This document shows, piece after piece, positions 602 to 55,480 of a stretch of DNA of 64,000 bases. The notes below the pieces were generated by a model. The model saw only the letters and a program-made list of their open reading frames with translations, was not told the origin of the DNA and ran no database searches. The position numbers and the translations under genes are program-made. Every line of letters begins with the position of its first letter. The stretch's first letter is position 1. The stretch lies in assembly GCF_003790525.1 (NCBI RefSeq), contig NZ_CP033635.1; one strand, 5' to 3'. This stretch comes from Escherichia coli (GTDB lineage Bacteria > Pseudomonadota > Gammaproteobacteria > Enterobacterales > Enterobacteriaceae).

Positions 602-2509
602 ATGTCATTAATCAGTATGCATGGCGCATGGCTGTCGTTCAGCGACGCGCCGCTTCTCGATAACGCAGAACTGCATATCGAAGATAACGAACGTGTTTGT
701 CTGGTAGGTCGTAACGGCGCAGGCAAATCGACGTTAATGAAGATCCTCAACCGTGAACAGGGGCTGGATGACGGTCGCATTATTTATGAGCAAGATTTGA
801 TTGTAGCTCGTCTGCAACAGGATCCGCCGCGTAACGTTGAGGGTAGCGTTTATGATTTCGTTGCCGAAGGCATTGAAGAACAAGCGGAATATCTGAAACG
901 CTATCACGATCTTTCGCGCCTGGTGATGAACGACCCGAGCGAGAAAAATCTCAACGAACTGGCGAAGGTTCAGGAACAGCTGGATCACCACAACCTGTGG
1001 CAGCTGGAAAACCGCATCAACGAAGTGCTGGCGCAACTGGGATTAGATCCTAATGTTGCGCTGTCGTCGCTTTCCGGCGGCTGGTTGCGTAAAGCGGCAT
1101 TAGGACGCGCGCTGGTGAGCAATCCGCGTGTATTGCTGCTCGACGAACCGACTAACCACCTGGATATTGAAACCATCGACTGGCTGGAAGGGTTCCTCAA
1201 AACCTTCAATGGGACAATTATTTTCATTTCCCACGACCGTTCGTTTATCCGCAATATGGCGACGCGCATTGTTGATCTCGATCGCGGCAAGCTGGTGACC
1301 TATCCAGGGAATTACGACCAGTACCTGCTGGAAAAAGAAGAAGCCCTGCGCGTGGAAGAATTACAAAATGCCGAGTTCGATCGCAAACTGGCGCAGGAAG
1401 AGGTGTGGATCCGCCAGGGGATCAAAGCGCGCCGTACCCGTAATGAAGGCCGCGTACGCGCCCTGAAAGCAATGCGCCGTGAACGTAGCCAGCGCCGTGA
1501 GGTCATGGGGACGGCAAAGATGCAGGTGGAAGAAGCCAGCCGCTCCGGAAAGATCGTTTTCGAAATGGAAGACGTTTGCTACCAGGTTGACGGTAAGCAA
1601 CTGGTGAAAGATTTTTCTGCCCAGGTTCTACGTGGCGACAAAATTGCCCTGATTGGCCCGAATGGGTGCGGCAAAACCACGCTGCTGAAACTGATGCTCG
1701 GTCAGCTTCAGGCGGACAGCGGGCGTATTCACGTTGGCACCAAACTGGAAGTGGCTTATTTCGATCAGCACCGTGCGGAACTGGATCCCGATAAAACGGT
1801 GATGGATAACCTTGCCGAAGGTAAGCAAGAGGTGATGGTTAACGGCAAGCCACGCCACGTATTGGGCTATTTGCAGGACTTCCTGTTCCATCCGAAACGG
1901 GCGATGACGCCGGTACGTGCGCTTTCTGGCGGTGAGCGGAACCGCTTGCTGCTGGCGCGTTTGTTCCTCAAACCAAGCAACTTATTGATTCTTGACGAAC
2001 CGACCAACGATCTTGATGTCGAAACGCTGGAACTGCTGGAAGAACTGATCGACAGCTACCAGGGCACGGTATTGCTGGTAAGCCACGATCGTCAGTTTGT
2101 CGATAACACCGTTACAGAATGCTGGATCTTCGAAGGCGGCGGTAAAATTGGTCGTTATGTCGGCGGTTATCATGATGCCCGTGGTCAGCAAGAGCAGTAT
2201 GTGGCGCTCAAACAGCCTGCGGTGAAAAAAACCGAAGAAGCCGCCGCGGCAAAAGCAGAAACTGTAAAACGCAGCAGTAGCAAACTAAGCTATAAATTGC
2301 AGCGCGAACTGGAGCAGCTACCGCAATTGCTTGAAGATCTGGAGGCGAAGCTGGAAGCCCTACAGACGCAGGTGGCGGATGCTTCCTTCTTCAGTCAGCC
2401 CCATGAGCAGACACAAAAAGTGCTCGCTGATATGGCTGCTGCAGAGCAGGAGCTGGAGCAAGCCTTTGAACGCTGGGAGTATCTTGAAGCGTTAAAAAAT
2501 GGTGGCTGA
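602..2509 (+). CDS. uup: ABC-F family ATPase Uup
   Basis: 635-aa ORF with two ABC ATPase cassettes (GRNGAGKST and GPNGCGKTT Walker A, two LSGG signatures) and a C-terminal coiled-coil tail; length matches Uup. Confidence 0.95.
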   Translation: MSLISMHGAWLSFSDAPLLDNAELHIEDNERVCLVGRNGAGKSTLMKILNREQGLDDGRIIYEQDLIVARLQQDPPRNVEGSVYDFVAEGIEEQAEYLKRYHDLSRLVMNDPSEKNLNELAKVQEQLDHHNLWQLENRINEVLAQLGLDPNVALSSLSGGWLRKAALGRALVSNPRVLLLDEPTNHLDIETIDWLEGFLKTFNGTIIFISHDRSFIRNMATRIVDLDRGKLVTYPGNYDQYLLEKEEALRVEELQNAEFDRKLAQEEVWIRQGIKARRTRNEGRVRALKAMRRERSQRREVMGTAKMQVEEASRSGKIVFEMEDVCYQVDGKQLVKDFSAQVLRGDKIALIGPNGCGKTTLLKLMLGQLQADSGRIHVGTKLEVAYFDQHRAELDPDKTVMDNLAEGKQEVMVNGKPRHVLGYLQDFLFHPKRAMTPVRALSGGERNRLLLARLFLKPSNLLILDEPTNDLDVETLELLEELIDSYQGTVLLVSHDRQFVDNTVTECWIFEGGGKIGRYVGGYHDARGQQEQYVALKQPAVKKTEEAAAAKAETVKRSSSKLSYKLQRELEQLPQLLEDLEAKLEALQTQVADASFFSQPHEQTQKVLADMAAAEQELEQAFERWEYLEALKNGG

Positions 2510-2638
2510 TCGCAAAATAGTCGATTTAAACAGAGACAGCTGACAACGGTAAAATTGCCTGATGAACTGGGTTTATCAGGCATGAAAACCAACACTTTGT
2601 TCGTCATCTGTAAAATAGCGCATCATTAAGGAGTACCA

Positions 2639-3892
2639 ATGTGCGAACATCATCATGCCGCGAAGCACATCCTGTGCTCGCAGTGTGACATGCTGGTGGC
2701 GTTACCGCGCCTTGAGCATGGTCAGAAAGCGGCATGTCCCCGGTGTGGCACAACGTTAACCGTGGCGTGGGATGCCCCTCGGCAGCGTCCCACCGCCTAT
2801 GCGTTGGCTGCACTGTTCATGCTGTTGCTGTCCAACTTGTTTCCTTTTGTGAATATGAACGTTGCGGGAGTCACCAGTGAAATTACATTACTGGAAATTC
2901 CCGGCGTGCTTTTTTCTGAGGACTACGCCAGCCTCGGCACCTTTTTCCTGTTGTTTGTGCAACTGGTTCCCGCGTTTTGTCTGATAACCATTCTGTTACT
3001 GGTGAATCGCGCGGAATTACCGGTCCGTTTAAAAGAGCAACTGGCACGGGTGCTTTTTCAACTCAAAACCTGGGGAATGGCGGAAATTTTCCTCGCGGGA
3101 GTGCTGGTCAGTTTCGTTAAACTGATGGCCTACGGCAGCATTGGTGTCGGCAGTAGCTTTCTCCCCTGGTGTTTATTTTGTGTCCTGCAACTGCGCGCCT
3201 TTCAGTGCGTTGATCGTCGCTGGTTATGGGACGATATCGCCCCGATGCCAGAACTGCGCCAGCCGCTAAAACCTGGCGTCACGGGGATACGTCAGGGGCT
3301 GCGTTCTTGCTCCTGTTGTACGGCAATCCTTCCTGCTGATGAACCCGTATGCCCGCGCTGTGGTACTAAAGGGTACGTTCGGCGTAGAAACAGCCTGCAG
3401 TGGACACTCGCGCTGCTTGTAACGTCCATCATGCTGTACCTTCCGGCTAATATTTTGCCCATCATGGTGACGGATTTATTAGGCTCGAAGATGCCATCGA
3501 CGATTCTCGCTGGGGTCATCCTGTTATGGAGCGAAGGATCTTATCCCGTCGCTGCGGTTATCTTTCTGGCCAGTATTATGGTGCCAACGTTAAAGATGAT
3601 CGCCATAGCGTGGTTGTGTTGGGATGCCAAAGGGCATGGCAAGCGCGACAGTGAAAGAATGCATTTGATTTATGAAGTTGTTGAGTTTGTAGGCCGCTGG
3701 TCGATGATTGACGTTTTCGTTATCGCGGTGCTCTCGGCGCTGGTGCGTATGGGAGGTTTAATGAGTATTTATCCGGCAATGGGTGCATTAATGTTTGCTT
3801 TAGTCGTCATAATGACAATGTTTTCTGCTATGACGTTTGACCCGCGTTTGTCGTGGGATCGTCAACCTGAATCAGAGCATGAGGAGTCCTGA
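2639..3892 (+). CDS. pqiA: Paraquat-inducible inner-membrane protein PqiA
   Basis: 417-aa ORF with two CxxC...CxxC zinc-ribbon segments and hydrophobic helices; first gene of pqiABC. Confidence 0.93.
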   Translation: MCEHHHAAKHILCSQCDMLVALPRLEHGQKAACPRCGTTLTVAWDAPRQRPTAYALAALFMLLLSNLFPFVNMNVAGVTSEITLLEIPGVLFSEDYASLGTFFLLFVQLVPAFCLITILLLVNRAELPVRLKEQLARVLFQLKTWGMAEIFLAGVLVSFVKLMAYGSIGVGSSFLPWCLFCVLQLRAFQCVDRRWLWDDIAPMPELRQPLKPGVTGIRQGLRSCSCCTAILPADEPVCPRCGTKGYVRRRNSLQWTLALLVTSIMLYLPANILPIMVTDLLGSKMPSTILAGVILLWSEGSYPVAAVIFLASIMVPTLKMIAIAWLCWDAKGHGKRDSERMHLIYEVVEFVGRWSMIDVFVIAVLSALVRMGGLMSIYPAMGALMFALVVIMTMFSAMTFDPRLSWDRQPESEHEES

Positions 3893-9122: not shown

Positions 9123-9575
9123 ATGAAATATCAACAACTTGAAAATCTTGAAAGCGGTTGGAAATGGAAGTATCTGGTGAAGAAGCATCGCGAAGGGGAG
9201 TTAATCACCCGTTACATAGAAGCCAGTGCCGCCCAGGAAGCCGTCGATGTGTTGCTCTCGCTGGAAAATGAACCCGTGCTGGTAAATAACTGGATTGATA
9301 AGCATATGAATCCGGAACTGGTCAATCGCATGAAGCAGACCATTCGGGCCAGACGGAAGCGCCATTTTAATGCGGAACACCAGCATACGCGCAAAAAATC
9401 GATCGATCTGGAATTTATTGTCTGGCAACGTCTGGCTGGTCTTGCGCAGCGTCGCGGTAAAACGCTTTCTGAAACGATTGTTCAGCTGATTGAAGATGCG
9501 GAAAACAAAGAGAAATACGCGAATAAAATGTCTTCTCTGAAGCAGGATCTGCAGGCATTGCTGGGTAAGGAATAA
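9123..9575 (+). CDS. matP: Ter macrodomain organiser MatP
   Basis: 150-aa [29 protein letters not shown]..., recognised as MatP. Confidence 0.93.
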
Positions 9576-9607
9576 CTGTCAAAAGTCACTTCAATTTACT
9601 AAAGGCG

Positions 9608-9637
9608 AAAAAAAACCCCGCAGCTGCGGGGTTTTTT
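9608..9637. terminator. Bidirectional intrinsic terminator between matP and ompA
   Basis: A-run, hairpin ccccgcagctgcgggg, T-run. Confidence 0.8.
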
Positions 9638-9650
9638 ACCAGACGAGAAC

Positions 9651-10703
9651 TTAAGCCTGCGGCTGAGTTACAACGTCTTTGATACCTTTAACTTCGATCT
9701 CTACGCGACGATCCGGAGCCAGGCAGTCGATCAGTGCAGCACGCTGTTTCACGTTGTCACAGGTGTTGCCAGTAACCGGGTTGGATTCGCCCATACCACG
9801 TGCGGAGATTTTGTCTGCCGGGATACCTTTAGAGATCAGGTAATCAACAACGGACTGAGCACGACGCTCGGACAGAGCCTGGTTGTAAGCGTCAGAACCG
9901 ATGCGGTCGGTGTAACCCAGAACAACTACGGAACCGTCTTTCGGATCCAGGTTGCTCAGCTGGCTGTACAGCTGATCCAGAGCAGCCTGACCTTCCGGTT
10001 TCAGGGTTGCTTTGTTGAAGTTGAACAGAACGTCAGACTTCAGAGTGAAGTGCTTGGTCTGTACTTCCGGTGCCGGAGCTGGAGCCGGAGCAACTACTGG
10101 AGCTGCTTCGCCCTGACCGAAACGGTAGGAAACACCCAGGCTCAGCATGCCGTTGTCCGGACGAGTACCGATGGTGTGTGCGTCACCGATGTTGTTGGTC
10201 CACTGGTATTCCAGACGGGTAGCGATTTCAGGAGTGATCGCGTACTCAACACCGCCAGCGAAGACCGGAGAAACGCCGGTGTCGTGGTCTTTAGTGGATG
10301 CGCCACCAGGTACGTTAGACTTGGTGTCTGCACGCCATACCATACCACCCAGACGAGTGTAAACGTCCAGATCGTCAGTGATTGGGTAACCCAGTTTAGC
10401 GGTCAGCTGAACGCCCTGAGCTTTGTATGCGCCGTTGATGTTGTCGCCTTTGTACGGCATACGACCTAACCAGTCGTAACCCATTTCAAAGCCAACATAC
10501 GGGTTAACCTGGTAACCACCAAAAGCACCTGCACCCAGTTGGTTTTCGTGGGTCGGACCATTGTTAGGAATAAAACCAGTGTCATGGTACTGGGACCAGC
10601 CCAGTTTAGCACCAGTGTACCAGGTGTTATCTTTCGGAGCGGCCTGCGCTACGGTAGCGAAACCAGCCAGTGCCACTGCAATCGCGATAGCTGTCTTTTT
10701 CAT
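9651..10703 (-). CDS. ompA: Outer membrane protein A (variant loop allele)
   Basis: [21 protein letters not shown] signal peptide, beta-barrel, APAPAPAPE hinge and C-terminal OmpA domain; 350 aa from the MKKT start, 4 aa longer than the K-12 protein because of a loop insertion ([14 protein letters not shown]). Confidence 0.95.
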
Positions 10704-11058
10704 TTTTTGCGCCTCGTTATCATCCAAAATACGCCATGAATATCTCCAACGAGATAACACGGTTAAATCCTTCACCGGGGATCTGCTCAATATTAACTCT
10801 ACCGATATCTTCGGCTTATGCCGAGCACCCCTGGCGATGTAAAGTCTACAACGTAGTTGAAAACTTACAAGTGTGAACTCCGTCAGGCATATGAAAAAAA
10901 AGTCTTGTATAAGGTACGTTTAATCTTTTTTGTCAGCGACAATTTACAGAAGAAAATCGCGGAAACCGCTTCAGACAAGCCTCTGCAAGGAAAATTAGTC
11001 ACGACTGAAAGCATTGGCTGGGCGACAAAAAAAGTTCCAGGATTAATCCTAAATTTAC

Positions 11059-11568
11059 TTAATGATACAAATTAGAGTGAATTTTTAGCCCGGAAAGTTG
11101 TCTCGTTGCGTGAGAGGAAGCGCTTACCGGACGCATAATAAACCCCATAGCGTTACCTTCATTTGCCGCATCAACAAGTTCAGCATGCTCTTCTTCAGTC
11201 AAATCATCTGCCAACCAACCGATCACCACACTGTAATTGCCCGTGCGTAAAGCGCGAACCATTGACTCCACGGTGTGGCAAGGGGAGAGCTGGCTAATCT
11301 GCATTACTTTCGTTAAGGGTAGCCCAGATGCCTGAACCCATTCGCGACTCAGTTTTTGTTGCGGTGTTAACCAGAGTTGCCAGCGCGATTGCTGACCGAG
11401 TTGCTGTAACAATGGCAACAGTAGAAGTTGCGTCATCATGGGCTGATCTTCGCGATAGACAACTTCACTGATAAGCCCGGCTGTAGTGTTTTCCGTAGAG
11501 ACACGCGCAATTTTACTTGCTGCGGATGAGAACGACGAAGAACGATGTGCATAGCCTGAAGTGTACAT
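11059..11568 (-). CDS. sulA: SOS cell-division inhibitor SulA
   Basis: 169 aa from [38 protein letters not shown]...; LexA box immediately upstream. Confidence 0.95.
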
Positions 11569-22275: not shown

Positions 22276-22363
22276 TGGCGGAAGCGCAGAGATTCGAACT
22301 CTGGAACCCTTTCGGGTCGCCGGTTTTCAAGACCGGTGCCTTCAACCGCTCGGCCACACTTCC
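22276..22363 (-). tRNA. serT: tRNA-Ser (UGA anticodon)
   Basis: The minus strand reads GGAAGTGTGGCCGAGCGGTTGAAGGCACCGGTCTTGAAAACCGGCGACCCGAAAGGGTTCCAGAGTTCGAATCTCTGCGCTTCCGCCA: long variable arm, TGA anticodon loop, encoded CCA. Confidence 0.95.
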
Positions 22364-31267: not shown

Positions 31268-32578
31268 ATGAAAGCGATCTTGATCCCATTTTTATCTCTT
31301 CTGATTCCGTTAACCCCGCAATCTGCATTCGCTAAGAGTGAGCCGGAGCTGAAGCTGGAAAGTGTGGTGATTGTCAGTCGTCATGGTGTGCGTGCCCCAA
31401 CCAAGGCCACGCAACTGATGCAGGATGTCACCCCAGACGCATGGCCAACATGGCCGGTAAAACTGGGGTGGCTGACACCGCGCGGTGGTGAGCTAATCGC
31501 TTATCTCGGACATTACCAACGCCAGCGTCTGGTGGCTGACGGATTGCTGGCGAAAAAGGGCTGCCCGCAGCCTGGTCAGGTCGCGATTATTGCTGATGTC
31601 GACGAGCGTACCCGTAAAACAGGCGAAGCCTTCGCCGCCGGGCTGGCACCTGACTGTGCAATAACCGTACATACCCAGGCAGATACGTCCAGTCCCGATC
31701 CGTTATTTAATCCTCTAAAAACTGGCGTTTGCCAACTGGATAACGCGAATGTGACTGACGCGATCCTCAGCAGGGCAGGAGGGTCAATTGCTGACTTTAC
31801 CGGGCATCGGCAAACGGCGTTTCGCGAACTGGAACAGGTACTTAATTTCCCACAATCAAACTTGTGCCTTAACCGTGAGAAACAGGACAAAAGTTGTTCA
31901 TTAACGCAGGCATTACCATCGGAACTCAAGGTGAGCGCCGACAATGTCTCATTAACCGGTGCGGTAAGCCTCGCATCAATGCTGACGGAGATATTTCTCC
32001 TGCAACAAGCACAGGGAATGCCGGAGCCGGGGTGGGGAAGGATCACCGATTCACACCAGTGGAACACCTTGCTAAGTTTGCATAACGCGCAATTTTATTT
32101 GCTACAACGCACGCCAGAGGTTGCCCGCAGCCGCGCCACCCCGTTATTAGATTTGATCAAGACAGCGTTGACGCCCCATCCACCGCAAAAACAGGCGTAT
32201 GGTGTGACATTACCCACTTCAGTGCTGTTTATCGCCGGACATGATACTAATCTGGCAAATCTCGGCGGCGCACTGGAGCTCAACTGGACGCTTCCAGCTC
32301 AGCCGGATAACACGCCGCCAGGGGGTGAACTGGTGTTTGAACGCTGGCGTCGGCTAAGCGATAACAGCCAGTGGATTCAGGTTTCGCTGGTCTTTCAGAC
32401 TTTACAGCAGATGCGTGATAAAACGCCGCTATCATTAAATACGCCGCCCGGAGAGGTGAAACTGACCCTGGCTGGATGTGAAGAGCGAAATGCGCAGGGC
32501 ATGTGTTCGTTGGCCAGTTTTACGCAAATCGTGAATGAAGCACGCATACCGGCGTGCGCTCTCCATCAAGACAAATAA
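31268..32578 (+). CDS. appA: Periplasmic acid phosphatase / phytase AppA
   Basis: Signal peptide [22 protein letters not shown] and histidine acid phosphatase motif RHGVRAP. C-terminus here is ...[10 protein letters not shown], longer than and different from the K-12 ending as I recall it (...IPACSL); the stop overlaps the cspH stop on the other strand. Confidence 0.93.
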
Positions 32579-32778
32579 ACATTTGCCGCTGTTGGTCCTC
32601 GCAGGCCATTTACGCGGCAAAATTCCACGCGTAATCCTGGTATAAGCACTTCCGCGTCGCGGGGAGTGAATGCGGAAATATGGACCTGGACTTCTTTACG
32701 ACCGTCGGAGGGGATAATGAATCCTTTGCCGCTTTTGCGATCAAAGGTTTTGACAATTCCTGTCATTTTACGGGACAA
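32566..32778 (-). CDS. cspH: Cold-shock-like protein CspH
   Basis: 70-aa [40 protein letters not shown]... Confidence 0.93.
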
Positions 32779-33063
32779 ACAAATTCCTTACTGAAAATAC
32801 TGCGCTGCACTATACGGGGTTAATAAAATAAAGCCAGCGATATTTAAGACCGCCGGACGGCTAAAATAAAAATTGCTTAATCTCAATTATCATGCGTTAA
32901 TAGCTGCGTCGGTTTGAAAGACAGACAGCATACAAAGTAGTTTACTAAAGCAGTTCTCATTATCAGGCATTATCCCCTTCTTTTGAGTCTCTCTCCTGAA
33001 CACTAAGTAGTTTCTGTATTAAAGCCCTGTTTGCCGAAAGGCCCAAAATGAAGGAAGTAAAAT

Positions 33064-33276
33064 ATGTCTAATAAAATGACTGGTTTAGTAAAATGGTTTA
33101 ACGCAGATAAAGGTTTTGGCTTTATCACTCCTGATGATGGCAGCAAAGACGTTTTCGTCCATTTCACCGCCATCCAGAGCAATGAATTCCGCACGCTGAA
33201 CGAAAATCAGAAAGTTGAATTTTCTATTGAGCAGGGGCAACGTGGTCCCGCGGCAGCGAACGTTGTTACGCTCTAA
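33064..33276 (+). CDS. cspG: Cold-shock protein CspG
   Basis: 70-aa [45 protein letters not shown]... Confidence 0.95.
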
Positions 33277-33475
33277 GGTTGCCGTTATTACTCAACATCT
33301 CCATTTCCGCTGTCCATGTTGTCATGGTTCACAGTACCGCACATCGGCATTCGATGTGACGGAGCGAAATCCTTTAGGGGCAAAGTGTATTTTTTGTAAA
33401 TCGACGATGATCACCTTTGATAACGTCGCGCTGCAAATACGCACTGAGCATGCGCCGCTGGATTTCACAAAATAA
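33215..33475 (+). CDS. Hypothetical small Cys-rich protein (CPCC...C..C zinc-ribbon-like), possibly ymcF; true start unresolved
   Basis: ORF in this frame ends at 33475, directly before a hairpin+T-run terminator (33481..33504), and contains CPCCHGS...CIFCKS. The first ATG at 33215 lies inside cspG, so the real start, if the gene is real, is probably downstream. Confidence 0.3.
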
Positions 33476-34965: not shown

Positions 34966-35047
34966 GATTTTGACAGTCCGTTAAGTTGCATACCAAATGC
35001 CACTATTCTAGTTGTTCTTAACTGGCTGATATTGATTCAAATCGCGT

Positions 35048-53596: not shown

Positions 53597-55436
<1,840 letters not shown>

Positions 55437-55464
55437 ATCCTTTTCAGCCGCGTAATGGCTTGTT

Positions 55465-55480
55465 TGCAAAGCGGATGCCA
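55465..55480 (-). promoter_or_regulatory. Sigma-54 (-24/-12) promoter of the rut operon
   Basis: Minus strand reads TGGCAT-ccgct-TTGCA, matching TGGCAC-N5-TTGCW, about 30 nt upstream of the rutA ATG. Confidence 0.75.

Follow-up and report, generated by a model that had tools for sequence, protein, structure and literature searches.

The ompA locus

The window, by which we mean the whole stretch of 64,000 nucleotides of Escherichia coli DNA that was analysed, contains on its minus strand an open reading frame that is ompA and encodes an enterobacterial two-domain OmpA (Table 1). The precursor of 350 amino acids, as compared with 346 in K-12, begins with a signal peptide (codons 1-21), continues with the eight-stranded barrel (approximately codons 22-196), and ends, after a Pro-rich linker (APAPAPAP), with the periplasmic OmpA_C domain. 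The protein matches full-length E. coli OmpA (3nb3, E = 1.4e-226) and also the barrel structures 1BXW, 1QJP, 9FZC and 9FZD. Residues 205-350 were matched by phmmer to the E. coli OmpA C-terminal domain (2mqe) with E = 1.9e-91, while an AlphaFold2 model shows the eight strands of the enterobacterial OmpA barrel. The gene lies in the orthologous position, the order matP-ompA-sulA being shared with MG1655 and six further E. coli genomes. The ompA DNA of strain 2D is 100% identical to that of the window, and its product is annotated there as 'porin OmpA' (WP_024175778.1).

Between the convergent genes matP and ompA, a GC-rich palindrome, CCCCGCAGCTGCGGGG, can be read directly from the sequence, with a run of A before it and a run of T after it. 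Judged by this reading, the palindrome is likely to be a bidirectional intrinsic terminator. A promoter and terminator scan of positions 9500-11100 returned nothing above shuffled expectation and did not call the palindrome, and a search of Rfam returned no RNA family in or near ompA.

Table 1. Coordinates of ompA and of the sites compared with K-12 (mature K-12 numbering).
Feature	Position in window	Strand	Basis and remarks
ompA CDS	9651..10703	minus	350 codons plus stop; open reading frame and translation
Putative bidirectional intrinsic terminator	9616..9637	.	GC-rich palindrome with A run before and T run after
Divergent block, codons 44-139 (288 bp)	10287..10574	minus	Codon comparison and variable-site table
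Loop 1, N25P	10566..10568	minus	CCT vs AAC in K-12, 3/3 bases differ; beta1-beta2 connection
Loop 1 motif FIPNNGP	10554-10574	minus	K-12 has FINNNGP
Loop 2, S66D-V67N-E68I	10437..10445	minus	GAC AAC ATC vs AGC GTT GAA in K-12, 8/9 bases differ
Loop 2 motif, 11 residues	10425-10457	minus	K-12 counterpart KGSVENGAY
I93V	10362..10364	minus	Strand beta5; not surface-exposed; travels with the loop-3 cassette
Loop 3 cassette, 11 residues	10287..10319	minus	K-12 has SNVYGKN; Y111P, 12 extra nt, N114D; beta5-beta6 tip
Loop 3 motif, 14 residues	10275-10316	minus	K-12 counterpart NVYGKNHDTG
Loop 4	10149..10199	minus	Protein unchanged from K-12; has G154 and, at the loop-4 H/N polymorphism, H
G251A	9876..9878	minus	Periplasmic C-terminal domain

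Differences from the K-12 allele

The ompA gene of MG1655 was used as the comparator in a codon-by-codon alignment, and all residues are given in mature K-12 numbering. Relative to this sequence, the window protein carries N25P, S66D, V67N, E68I, I93V, Y111P, four extra residues, N114D and G251A; the length difference amounts to four codons (12 nt), and a further 20 codons differ synonymously. The alignment places the 12 extra nucleotides of loop 3 at 10293-10304, although their exact placement is ambiguous. The two proteins nevertheless share their gene, locus and synteny, the signal peptide, strands beta6-beta8 and loop 4, so that K-12 OmpA (pattern I, alpha; 'OmpA-short'; 1BXW, 1QJP, 9FZC) is set apart by eight substitutions and the four-residue length difference, with G251A as the only difference in the C-terminal domain. 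When scored for the features of the K-12 or OmpA-short allele (N25, SVE at 66-68, SNVYGKN and a 346-residue precursor), the window allele is not a member.

These differences are strongly clustered. The divergent block of Table 1 contains all of the barrel amino-acid differences from K-12 and almost all of the synonymous ones. In a 16-kb alignment of the window with K-12, 43 of the 268 differing columns fall within 10138-10637, where 8.4 would be expected (Poisson P = 2e-17), and when the 12 gap columns are left out, 31 remain against 8.0 expected (P = 5e-10).

The earlier note on this DNA had quoted three loop motifs as departures from K-12. All three are found exactly as they were written, in the minus-strand frame of ompA, and the K-12 counterparts that it gave (FINNNGP, KGSVENGAY and NVYGKNHDTG) all agree with MG1655. 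The interval of 10150-10420 to which the changes had been assigned is right for loop 3, for I93V and for the unchanged loop 4, but loops 1 and 2 lie outside it, at 10437-10574. Its inference that the strain is not K-12 is borne out by the flanks of the gene, which are 1.6-2.0% diverged from MG1655. Both I93V and G251A were absent from its list of changes.

Structural location of the changes

The window allele was modelled with AlphaFold2 on the basis of 85 aligned Enterobacterales OmpA sequences, and the eight strands of the model span mature residues 6-19, 33-44, 49-64, 69-86, 91-109, 115-134, 139-148 and 162-173. In the established topology of OmpA, whose C-terminal domain is the one that binds peptidoglycan, both ends of the barrel are periplasmic, which makes the odd-numbered connections extracellular loops (L1-L4). 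By the same topology and the model, the four-residue connections at 45-48, 87-90 and 135-138 correspond to periplasmic turns.

When the changes are placed on this predicted strand map, P25 lies in the long beta1-beta2 connection (residues 20-32) and D66-N67-I68 occupies the tip of the beta3-beta4 hairpin (residues 65-68). The beta5-beta6 tip is made up of residues V110-A114, S115-D118 belong to the start of beta6, which protrudes, and V93 is located in beta5 near its periplasmic end. I93V, in a strand, and G251A, in the periplasmic domain, are the only changes without surface exposure. Five of the seven barrel substitutions fall in extracellular connections, which make up 20% of the barrel residues (P = 0.005).

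The modelled fold agrees closely with experimental structures. Foldseek aligned the model barrel to 9fzd with a TM score of 0.94 (rmsd 1.5 Å, 98% identity), to 9fzc with 0.93 and to 1bxw with 0.88. The same positions were placed in loops 1-3 of the Pautsch-Schulz structure by Liao 2017 (PMC5413513). Both column entropy and indels reach their maxima, across the 85 Enterobacterales sequences, at residues 22-28, 66-69 and 106-118, and loop 3 is hypervariable in both length and sequence across at least 120 Enterobacterales species.

Together, the model and these comparisons show that, apart from G251A and one conservative change in a strand, only the exposed tips of L1-L3 are altered, while the barrel strands, loop 4, the linker and the peptidoglycan-binding domain are conserved. 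The assignment of the substitutions to extracellular loops in the earlier note is upheld by the predicted strand map, by the superposition on 9FZD and by the loop 1-3 mapping of Liao 2017; the residues do not fall in periplasmic turns, nor is the sequence identical in K-12.

Classification and frequency of the allele

Loop 3 of the window protein is four residues longer than that of K-12 and carries the NVPGG-S-KD motif, which places the protein in the OmpA-long class described in PMC12259851 and represented by 9FZD ('OmpA-long in complex with nanobody Nb39'). The 350-residue precursor, the longer loop 3, P25 and DNI are common to both, and the barrels are 98% identical. The reference OmpA-long (CS#11), however, has I93, A108, F116 (ANVPGGASFKD) and T203, where the window has V93, S108, T116 and N203. 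The immunogen used for Nb39 likewise has A108/F116 in place of S108/T116, in loop 3, a main nanobody contact (PMC12259851). The same 2025 study solved crystal structures for both isoforms and lists a clinical strain, #17 (urine, O153, 'long'), with the OmpA sequence of the window, allowing for machine-reading errors.

Within the typing scheme of Liao 2017 (PMC5413513), the window agrees at all four outer-loop positions with isolate 256, an isolate of unnamed pattern in Table 3A. The C-terminal pattern of that isolate is delta (A175, T203, A251), whereas the window has A175, N203 and A251. Scored at positions 25, 66-68 and 108-114 and at the loop-4 H/N site, the window fits none of the N-terminal patterns I-VII; scored at 175/203/251 (A, N, A), it fits none of the C-terminal patterns alpha-delta (ANG, ATG, VTA and ATA; Table 3B). 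A related allele is ompA2 (Power 2006, AEM 72:7930), which, in the account of PMC5413513, corresponds to Liao pattern II and was detected by PCR in about 43% of 524 isolates. As far as it is defined there, the ompA2 class shares P25, DNI and a long NVPGGAS- loop 3 with the class of the window, while a strict definition (P25, DNI, ANVPGGASF, loop-4 N) is departed from by S108, T116 and the loop-4 H of the window. Further diversity has been catalogued by Nielsen 2020, with 25 polymorphism patterns among 399 ExPEC isolates. A 2025 study (PMC12032242) mentions a variant with 'T137 in loop 3', and counted along the precursor this residue fits only a loop ending in ...GGAST. On this sequence match, loop 3 of the window may tentatively be equated with 'variant 7' of that study, in which the residue numbering is not fully consistent.

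The frequency of the long class was determined by blastn with 11-nt words, using a 70-nt loop-3 segment as the query against 5426 complete E. coli genomes. A full-length match to the long loop-3 class was obtained in 2129 of these (39%), and the remainder are mostly short. Megablast, which requires a 28-nt exact word, undercounts the long class (908 genomes), and 2129 is the figure to use. The published estimate of Liao 2017, who also summarise Gophna 2004, is a long loop 3 in about 40% of isolates.

The exact loop-3 segment of the window is far rarer than its class: at an identity of at least 98.6%, it occurs in 38 of the 5426 genomes. Even so, at least 24 complete genomes, which come from several hosts and countries, carry ompA DNA that is 100% identical to that of the window, and the exact 350-residue protein (RefSeq WP_024175778.1) is found on at least 1000 public contigs under the name porin OmpA. 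Over its first 25 kb, the window shows 100.0% identity (as printed) to approximately 20 complete genomes, SMS-3-5 among them, and the whole 64 kb is 99.995% identical to strain 2D, from which it differs by two mismatches and one indel.

The allele is thus already known, as a catalogued natural 'OmpA-long' variant, and its original observation was correct but ordinary. Alignment with known allele classes, which the earlier note had put forward as a check, leads to the OmpA-long class and to the loop pattern of isolate 256. The allele types the strain as a non-K-12 carrier of OmpA-long, a result of little weight for the window itself. Of wider relevance is that the atypical short form is carried by K-12, the strain that almost all structure-function work on OmpA takes as its reference.

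Implications for phage, colicin and antibody recognition

Outside the cell, OmpA would expose no protein surface other than its four loops. Changed loop tips would be expected to re-shape the docking site for phage receptor-binding proteins, such as the Gp38 adhesins of T-even-like phages, and the same re-shaping would touch OmpA-dependent colicins as well as antibodies and nanobodies, while the membrane barrel and the periplasmic peptidoglycan-binding domain would stay unaltered.

Several published observations bear on this proposal. Mutations in ompA that confer resistance to phages and colicins map mostly to loops 2 and 3. When eight ECOR OmpA variants were cloned in MG1655 delta-ompA, phages with narrow-host-range Gp38 infected variants 1, 3 and 4 only, whereas those with broad-host-range Gp38 infected all eight (PMC12032242). 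Nanobodies contact all four OmpA loops and are strictly isoform-specific (PMC12259851), and according to the title of Power 2006 (compare PMC5413513), phage sensitivity is reduced by the ompA2 allele. Conversely, Liao 2022 reports that loop sequence corresponds poorly with several surface phenotypes. O-antigen can mask OmpA (PMC12259851), and in wild strains O-antigen and capsule can shield it; the allele may therefore have little real-world effect on susceptibility.

By analogy with these experiments, which support the point for allele classes, we infer that the window allele should alter which phages, colicins and antibodies bind. The different phage, bacteriocin and epitope profile foreseen in the earlier note accordingly stands at the level of the allele class, from published experiments. 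At that level, OmpA loop alleles bear on the adsorption of OmpA-dependent phages, and so on the design of phage cocktails, and on recognition by OmpA-directed nanobodies, antibodies and vaccines; they possibly bear on colicin sensitivity as well.

Origin of the divergent block

The barrel DNA of the window is 8.2% diverged from that of K-12, as opposed to 1.1-2.0% in the flanks and the C-terminal domain. In comparisons with other long alleles, the barrel is 1.3-1.7% diverged and the flanks 0.8-1.6%. Nei-Gojobori dS relative to K-12 is 0.173 for the barrel and 0.035 for the C-terminal domain, values that are based on 3-18 synonymous changes. The window barrel is closer to that of E. albertii (dS 0.094, no indel) than to that of K-12, and the divergence of the C-terminal domain, unlike that of the barrel, tracks species relationships. 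The short K-12 class is approximately equidistant in the barrel from every other allele compared, at 24-35 nucleotide differences. The barrel allele moves independently of the genomic background, as in strain VE-V11-M, which combines K-12-like flanks (0.3%) with a barrel that is 6.7% diverged from K-12.

Outgroup proteins bear on which of the two forms of loop 3 is unusual. Salmonella enterica OmpA, taken from a 90% protein cluster, shares P25, DNI, V93 and a loop 3 of the SNVPGGxSTKD type (SNVPGGPSTKD) with the window; it differs in having P, E or Y in place of A114 and N for H in loop 4, as well as in strand residues and in the C-terminal domain, with an overall identity of approximately 95%. 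The E. albertii protein also has a long loop 3 (ANVPGGASFKD), and the loop 3 of a genome titled E. coli strain SCPM-O-B-8794 reads SNVPGGVSTKD. Because the long form resembles the OmpA of both S. enterica and E. albertii, the short and atypical loop of K-12 would be better described as the outlier than the loop of the window as an insertion, a polarity that rests on few outgroups, the genome scan of at least 120 loci being without Salmonella, E. fergusonii and most cryptic Escherichia clades. The terms 'substitutions' and 'longer loop', under which the allele was originally recorded, thus describe real differences from K-12 within a misleading frame, in which the divergent form serves as the standard.

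The window allele can also be resolved into segments of different affinity. In codons 44-58 (loop 1), the variable sites show no difference from the common OmpA-long allele (JJ1887/ST131, MS 69-1 and AR Bank #0349), and loops 1 and 2 are identical to it in DNA. Codons 114-137, which include V93, S108 and T116, match TR01 and SCPM-O-B-8794 at variable sites, and the segment from beta5 to loop 3 is nearly identical to the rarer SNVPGG[A/V]ST group. Downstream of codon 139, hardly any difference remains even from K-12. Judged by these matches, the window allele is a mosaic of loop cassettes that are found separately in other E. coli alleles. The divergent block represents one of two deeply separated allele classes, both present in E. 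coli, which homologous recombination moves and reshuffles between lineages. Taken as a whole, we hold it to be very probable that the locus is a non-K-12 chromosomal ompA with a known mosaic OmpA-long allele, drawn from recombining deep classes among which the K-12 loop is the outlier.

It is conceivable, though unlikely, that the variation is neutral, so that unconstrained loop tips simply drift and recombine, and the dimorphism is a historical accident without predictive value. The hypervariability of loop 3 and the entropy peaks exactly at the loop tips would fit such drift, as would the poor alignment of sequence variation with surface phenotypes in Liao 2022 and the attribution by Nielsen 2020 of most pattern differences to chromosomal history. 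Neutral drift does not, however, account for published work in which phage plating, nanobody binding and attachment changed with the natural variant that was cloned into an isogenic background. Furthermore, two deep classes persist at intermediate frequency, and a block of high dS within a region of low divergence is the signature expected of long-maintained alleles.

Horizontal transfer of the barrel into an E. coli backbone from another species, such as Salmonella or a member of a cryptic Escherichia clade, would explain why the loop residues match those of S. enterica, why the loop-3 cassette (V93, S108, T116) matches SCPM-O-B-8794 and TR01 in DNA, and why the barrel is nearer to E. albertii than to K-12. 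Yet when the window is compared with the other long alleles of E. coli, divergence in the barrel does not exceed that in the flanks, and the long class is present in 39% of E. coli genomes, from many strains and sources. Since the short class is approximately equidistant from all others, any import would more plausibly concern the short class, or be very old. The mosaic is explained by loop cassettes being exchanged within E. coli, and we consider a foreign origin of the window barrel improbable.

Considerably less probable still is a recent, lineage-specific escape under phage or immune pressure, by point changes and a small duplication or insertion. The affected sites do coincide with those of laboratory mutants resistant to phages and colicins, and the substitutions are concentrated in loops, as described above. 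However, the loop codons differ from those of K-12 at two to three bases each (CCT for AAC; GAC AAC ATC for AGC GTT GAA), synonymous divergence in the block is raised five-fold as well, Salmonella, E. albertii and 39% of E. coli genomes have the same residues, and identical ompA DNA is spread over several hosts and countries. Recent escape by point mutation is ruled out by the multi-base codon differences together with the high dS of the barrel.

Lastly, the chance is negligible that the signal is a sequencing or assembly artefact, or that it stems from one of the several antisense frames of 66-139 residues in 10050-10842 that overlap the interval of the earlier note: the ompA frame is intact and gives a full-length OmpA match, the loop-tip differences are not an assembly artefact because the ompA DNA is 100% identical in the independent complete assemblies counted above, and the antisense frames, none of which is annotated in the RefSeq records, were rejected as the chance open reading frames expected in a long, GC-balanced and highly expressed gene.

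A possible link to conjugation

OmpA also serves as the recipient receptor for TraN-gamma of the F plasmid, which has been reported to discriminate E. coli OmpA from that of Klebsiella, and the loop-4 mutation G154D abolishes F conjugation. Residue G154, the only known determinant of conjugation, is identical in the window and K-12 proteins. The long/short dimorphism, and the rarer SNVPGGAST loop especially, might, beyond recognition by phages and antibodies, alter mating-pair stabilisation by TraN-gamma, in which case the ompA allele would shape the flow of plasmids and resistance genes into the lineage. In a weaker version, the two barrel classes would be a trans-species polymorphism that predates the split of E. 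coli and E. albertii and is maintained through frequency-dependent selection by phages. We offer this reading as a speculation with a slim chance of being correct. As regards the weaker version, the pattern of dS in the barrel is compatible with an old polymorphism.

OmpA C-terminal domain

In the C-terminal domain of the window OmpA, N203 and A251 occur together (window 9867..9884, ompA codons 224 and 276). The former matches the alpha pattern of Liao 2017 (PMC5413513), and the latter is shared with delta and gamma. The resulting combination at residues 175, 203 and 251, (A, N, A), is absent from the list given in that study, and this C-terminal domain is possibly another intragenic recombinant.

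ompA alleles in other E. coli strains

A mosaic allele of 346 amino acids was found in E. coli VE-V11-M (NZ_AP027978.1; ompA at 2388..3428 of the fetched locus). Its product carries P25, DNI, V93, A108 and P111, yet possesses the short form of loop 3 (ANVPG-KD). The flanks of this gene are K-12-like, with 0.3% divergence, and its barrel is 6.7% diverged from that of K-12. This mosaic allele shows that the change in loop-3 length occurred, or was recombined, more than once.

The OmpA of strain TR01, which is labelled O157:H7 (NZ_CP033605.1; ompA at 2390..3442 of the fetched locus), is a long-loop allele with D25, DNI and SNVPGGVSTKD. The OmpA of O157:H7 EDL933 has been assigned to the K-12-like pattern I (Liao 2017, citing Gophna 2004; PMC5413513). 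A single OmpA accession, WP_001346420.1, is common to JJ1887 (ST131) and AR Bank #0349. The ompA DNA of these two strains nonetheless differs at several synonymous positions and their flanks are 1.4-1.6% apart; the same protein allele is therefore present on different nucleotide backgrounds.

Loop 3 across Enterobacterales

Among 120 Enterobacterales species, the length of OmpA loop 3 ranges from ~7 to >25 residues. This variable stretch immediately follows [12 protein letters not shown], a motif that is invariant, and from there up to the [HN]DTG motif, which is replaced by NDSG in one species, there are almost no conserved positions. The short 'NN-GFKD' form is retained in Citrobacter, Kosakonia and Pseudocitrobacter.

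Other features of the window

RNA features were taken as Rfam matches at the gathering score, and are listed below together with the genes discussed in this section.

Coordinates of RNA features and selected genes in the window
Feature	Position	Strand	Remark
tRNA-Ser (serT)	22279..22363	-	Rfam; adjoins hyaA
appA	31268..32578	+	13-nt overlap with cspH
cspH	32566..32778	-	13-nt overlap with appA
cspA-type thermoregulator	32908..33330	+	Rfam; spans cspG leader and gene
torS	~35037..37780	-	
naRNA4 (REP-derived nucleoid-associated RNA)	44012..44090	-	Rfam
rutA	~54289..55379	-	two ORFs, 54289..54867 and 54747..55469

At the appA/cspH junction (32566..32578), the ~9-kb etk-etp-gfcEDCBA group 4 capsule operon and IS1D are missing, whereas in K-12 both sit between these two genes. 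The window appA is also 12 nt longer than its K-12 counterpart.

The torS region, which encodes the TMAO sensor kinase, is identical to that of strain 2D, a near-identical E. coli relative in which PGAP labels the gene 'frameshifted' (pseudogene). In the window, its longest ORF stops at 35048 instead of 35037, pointing to a frameshift close to the 3' end.

In comparison with strain 2D, from which the window otherwise barely differs, rutA has a 1-nt deletion at 54775, by which it is broken into two ORFs. Either this gene of the pyrimidine-utilisation operon is a true pseudogene, or the deletion is a sequencing error.
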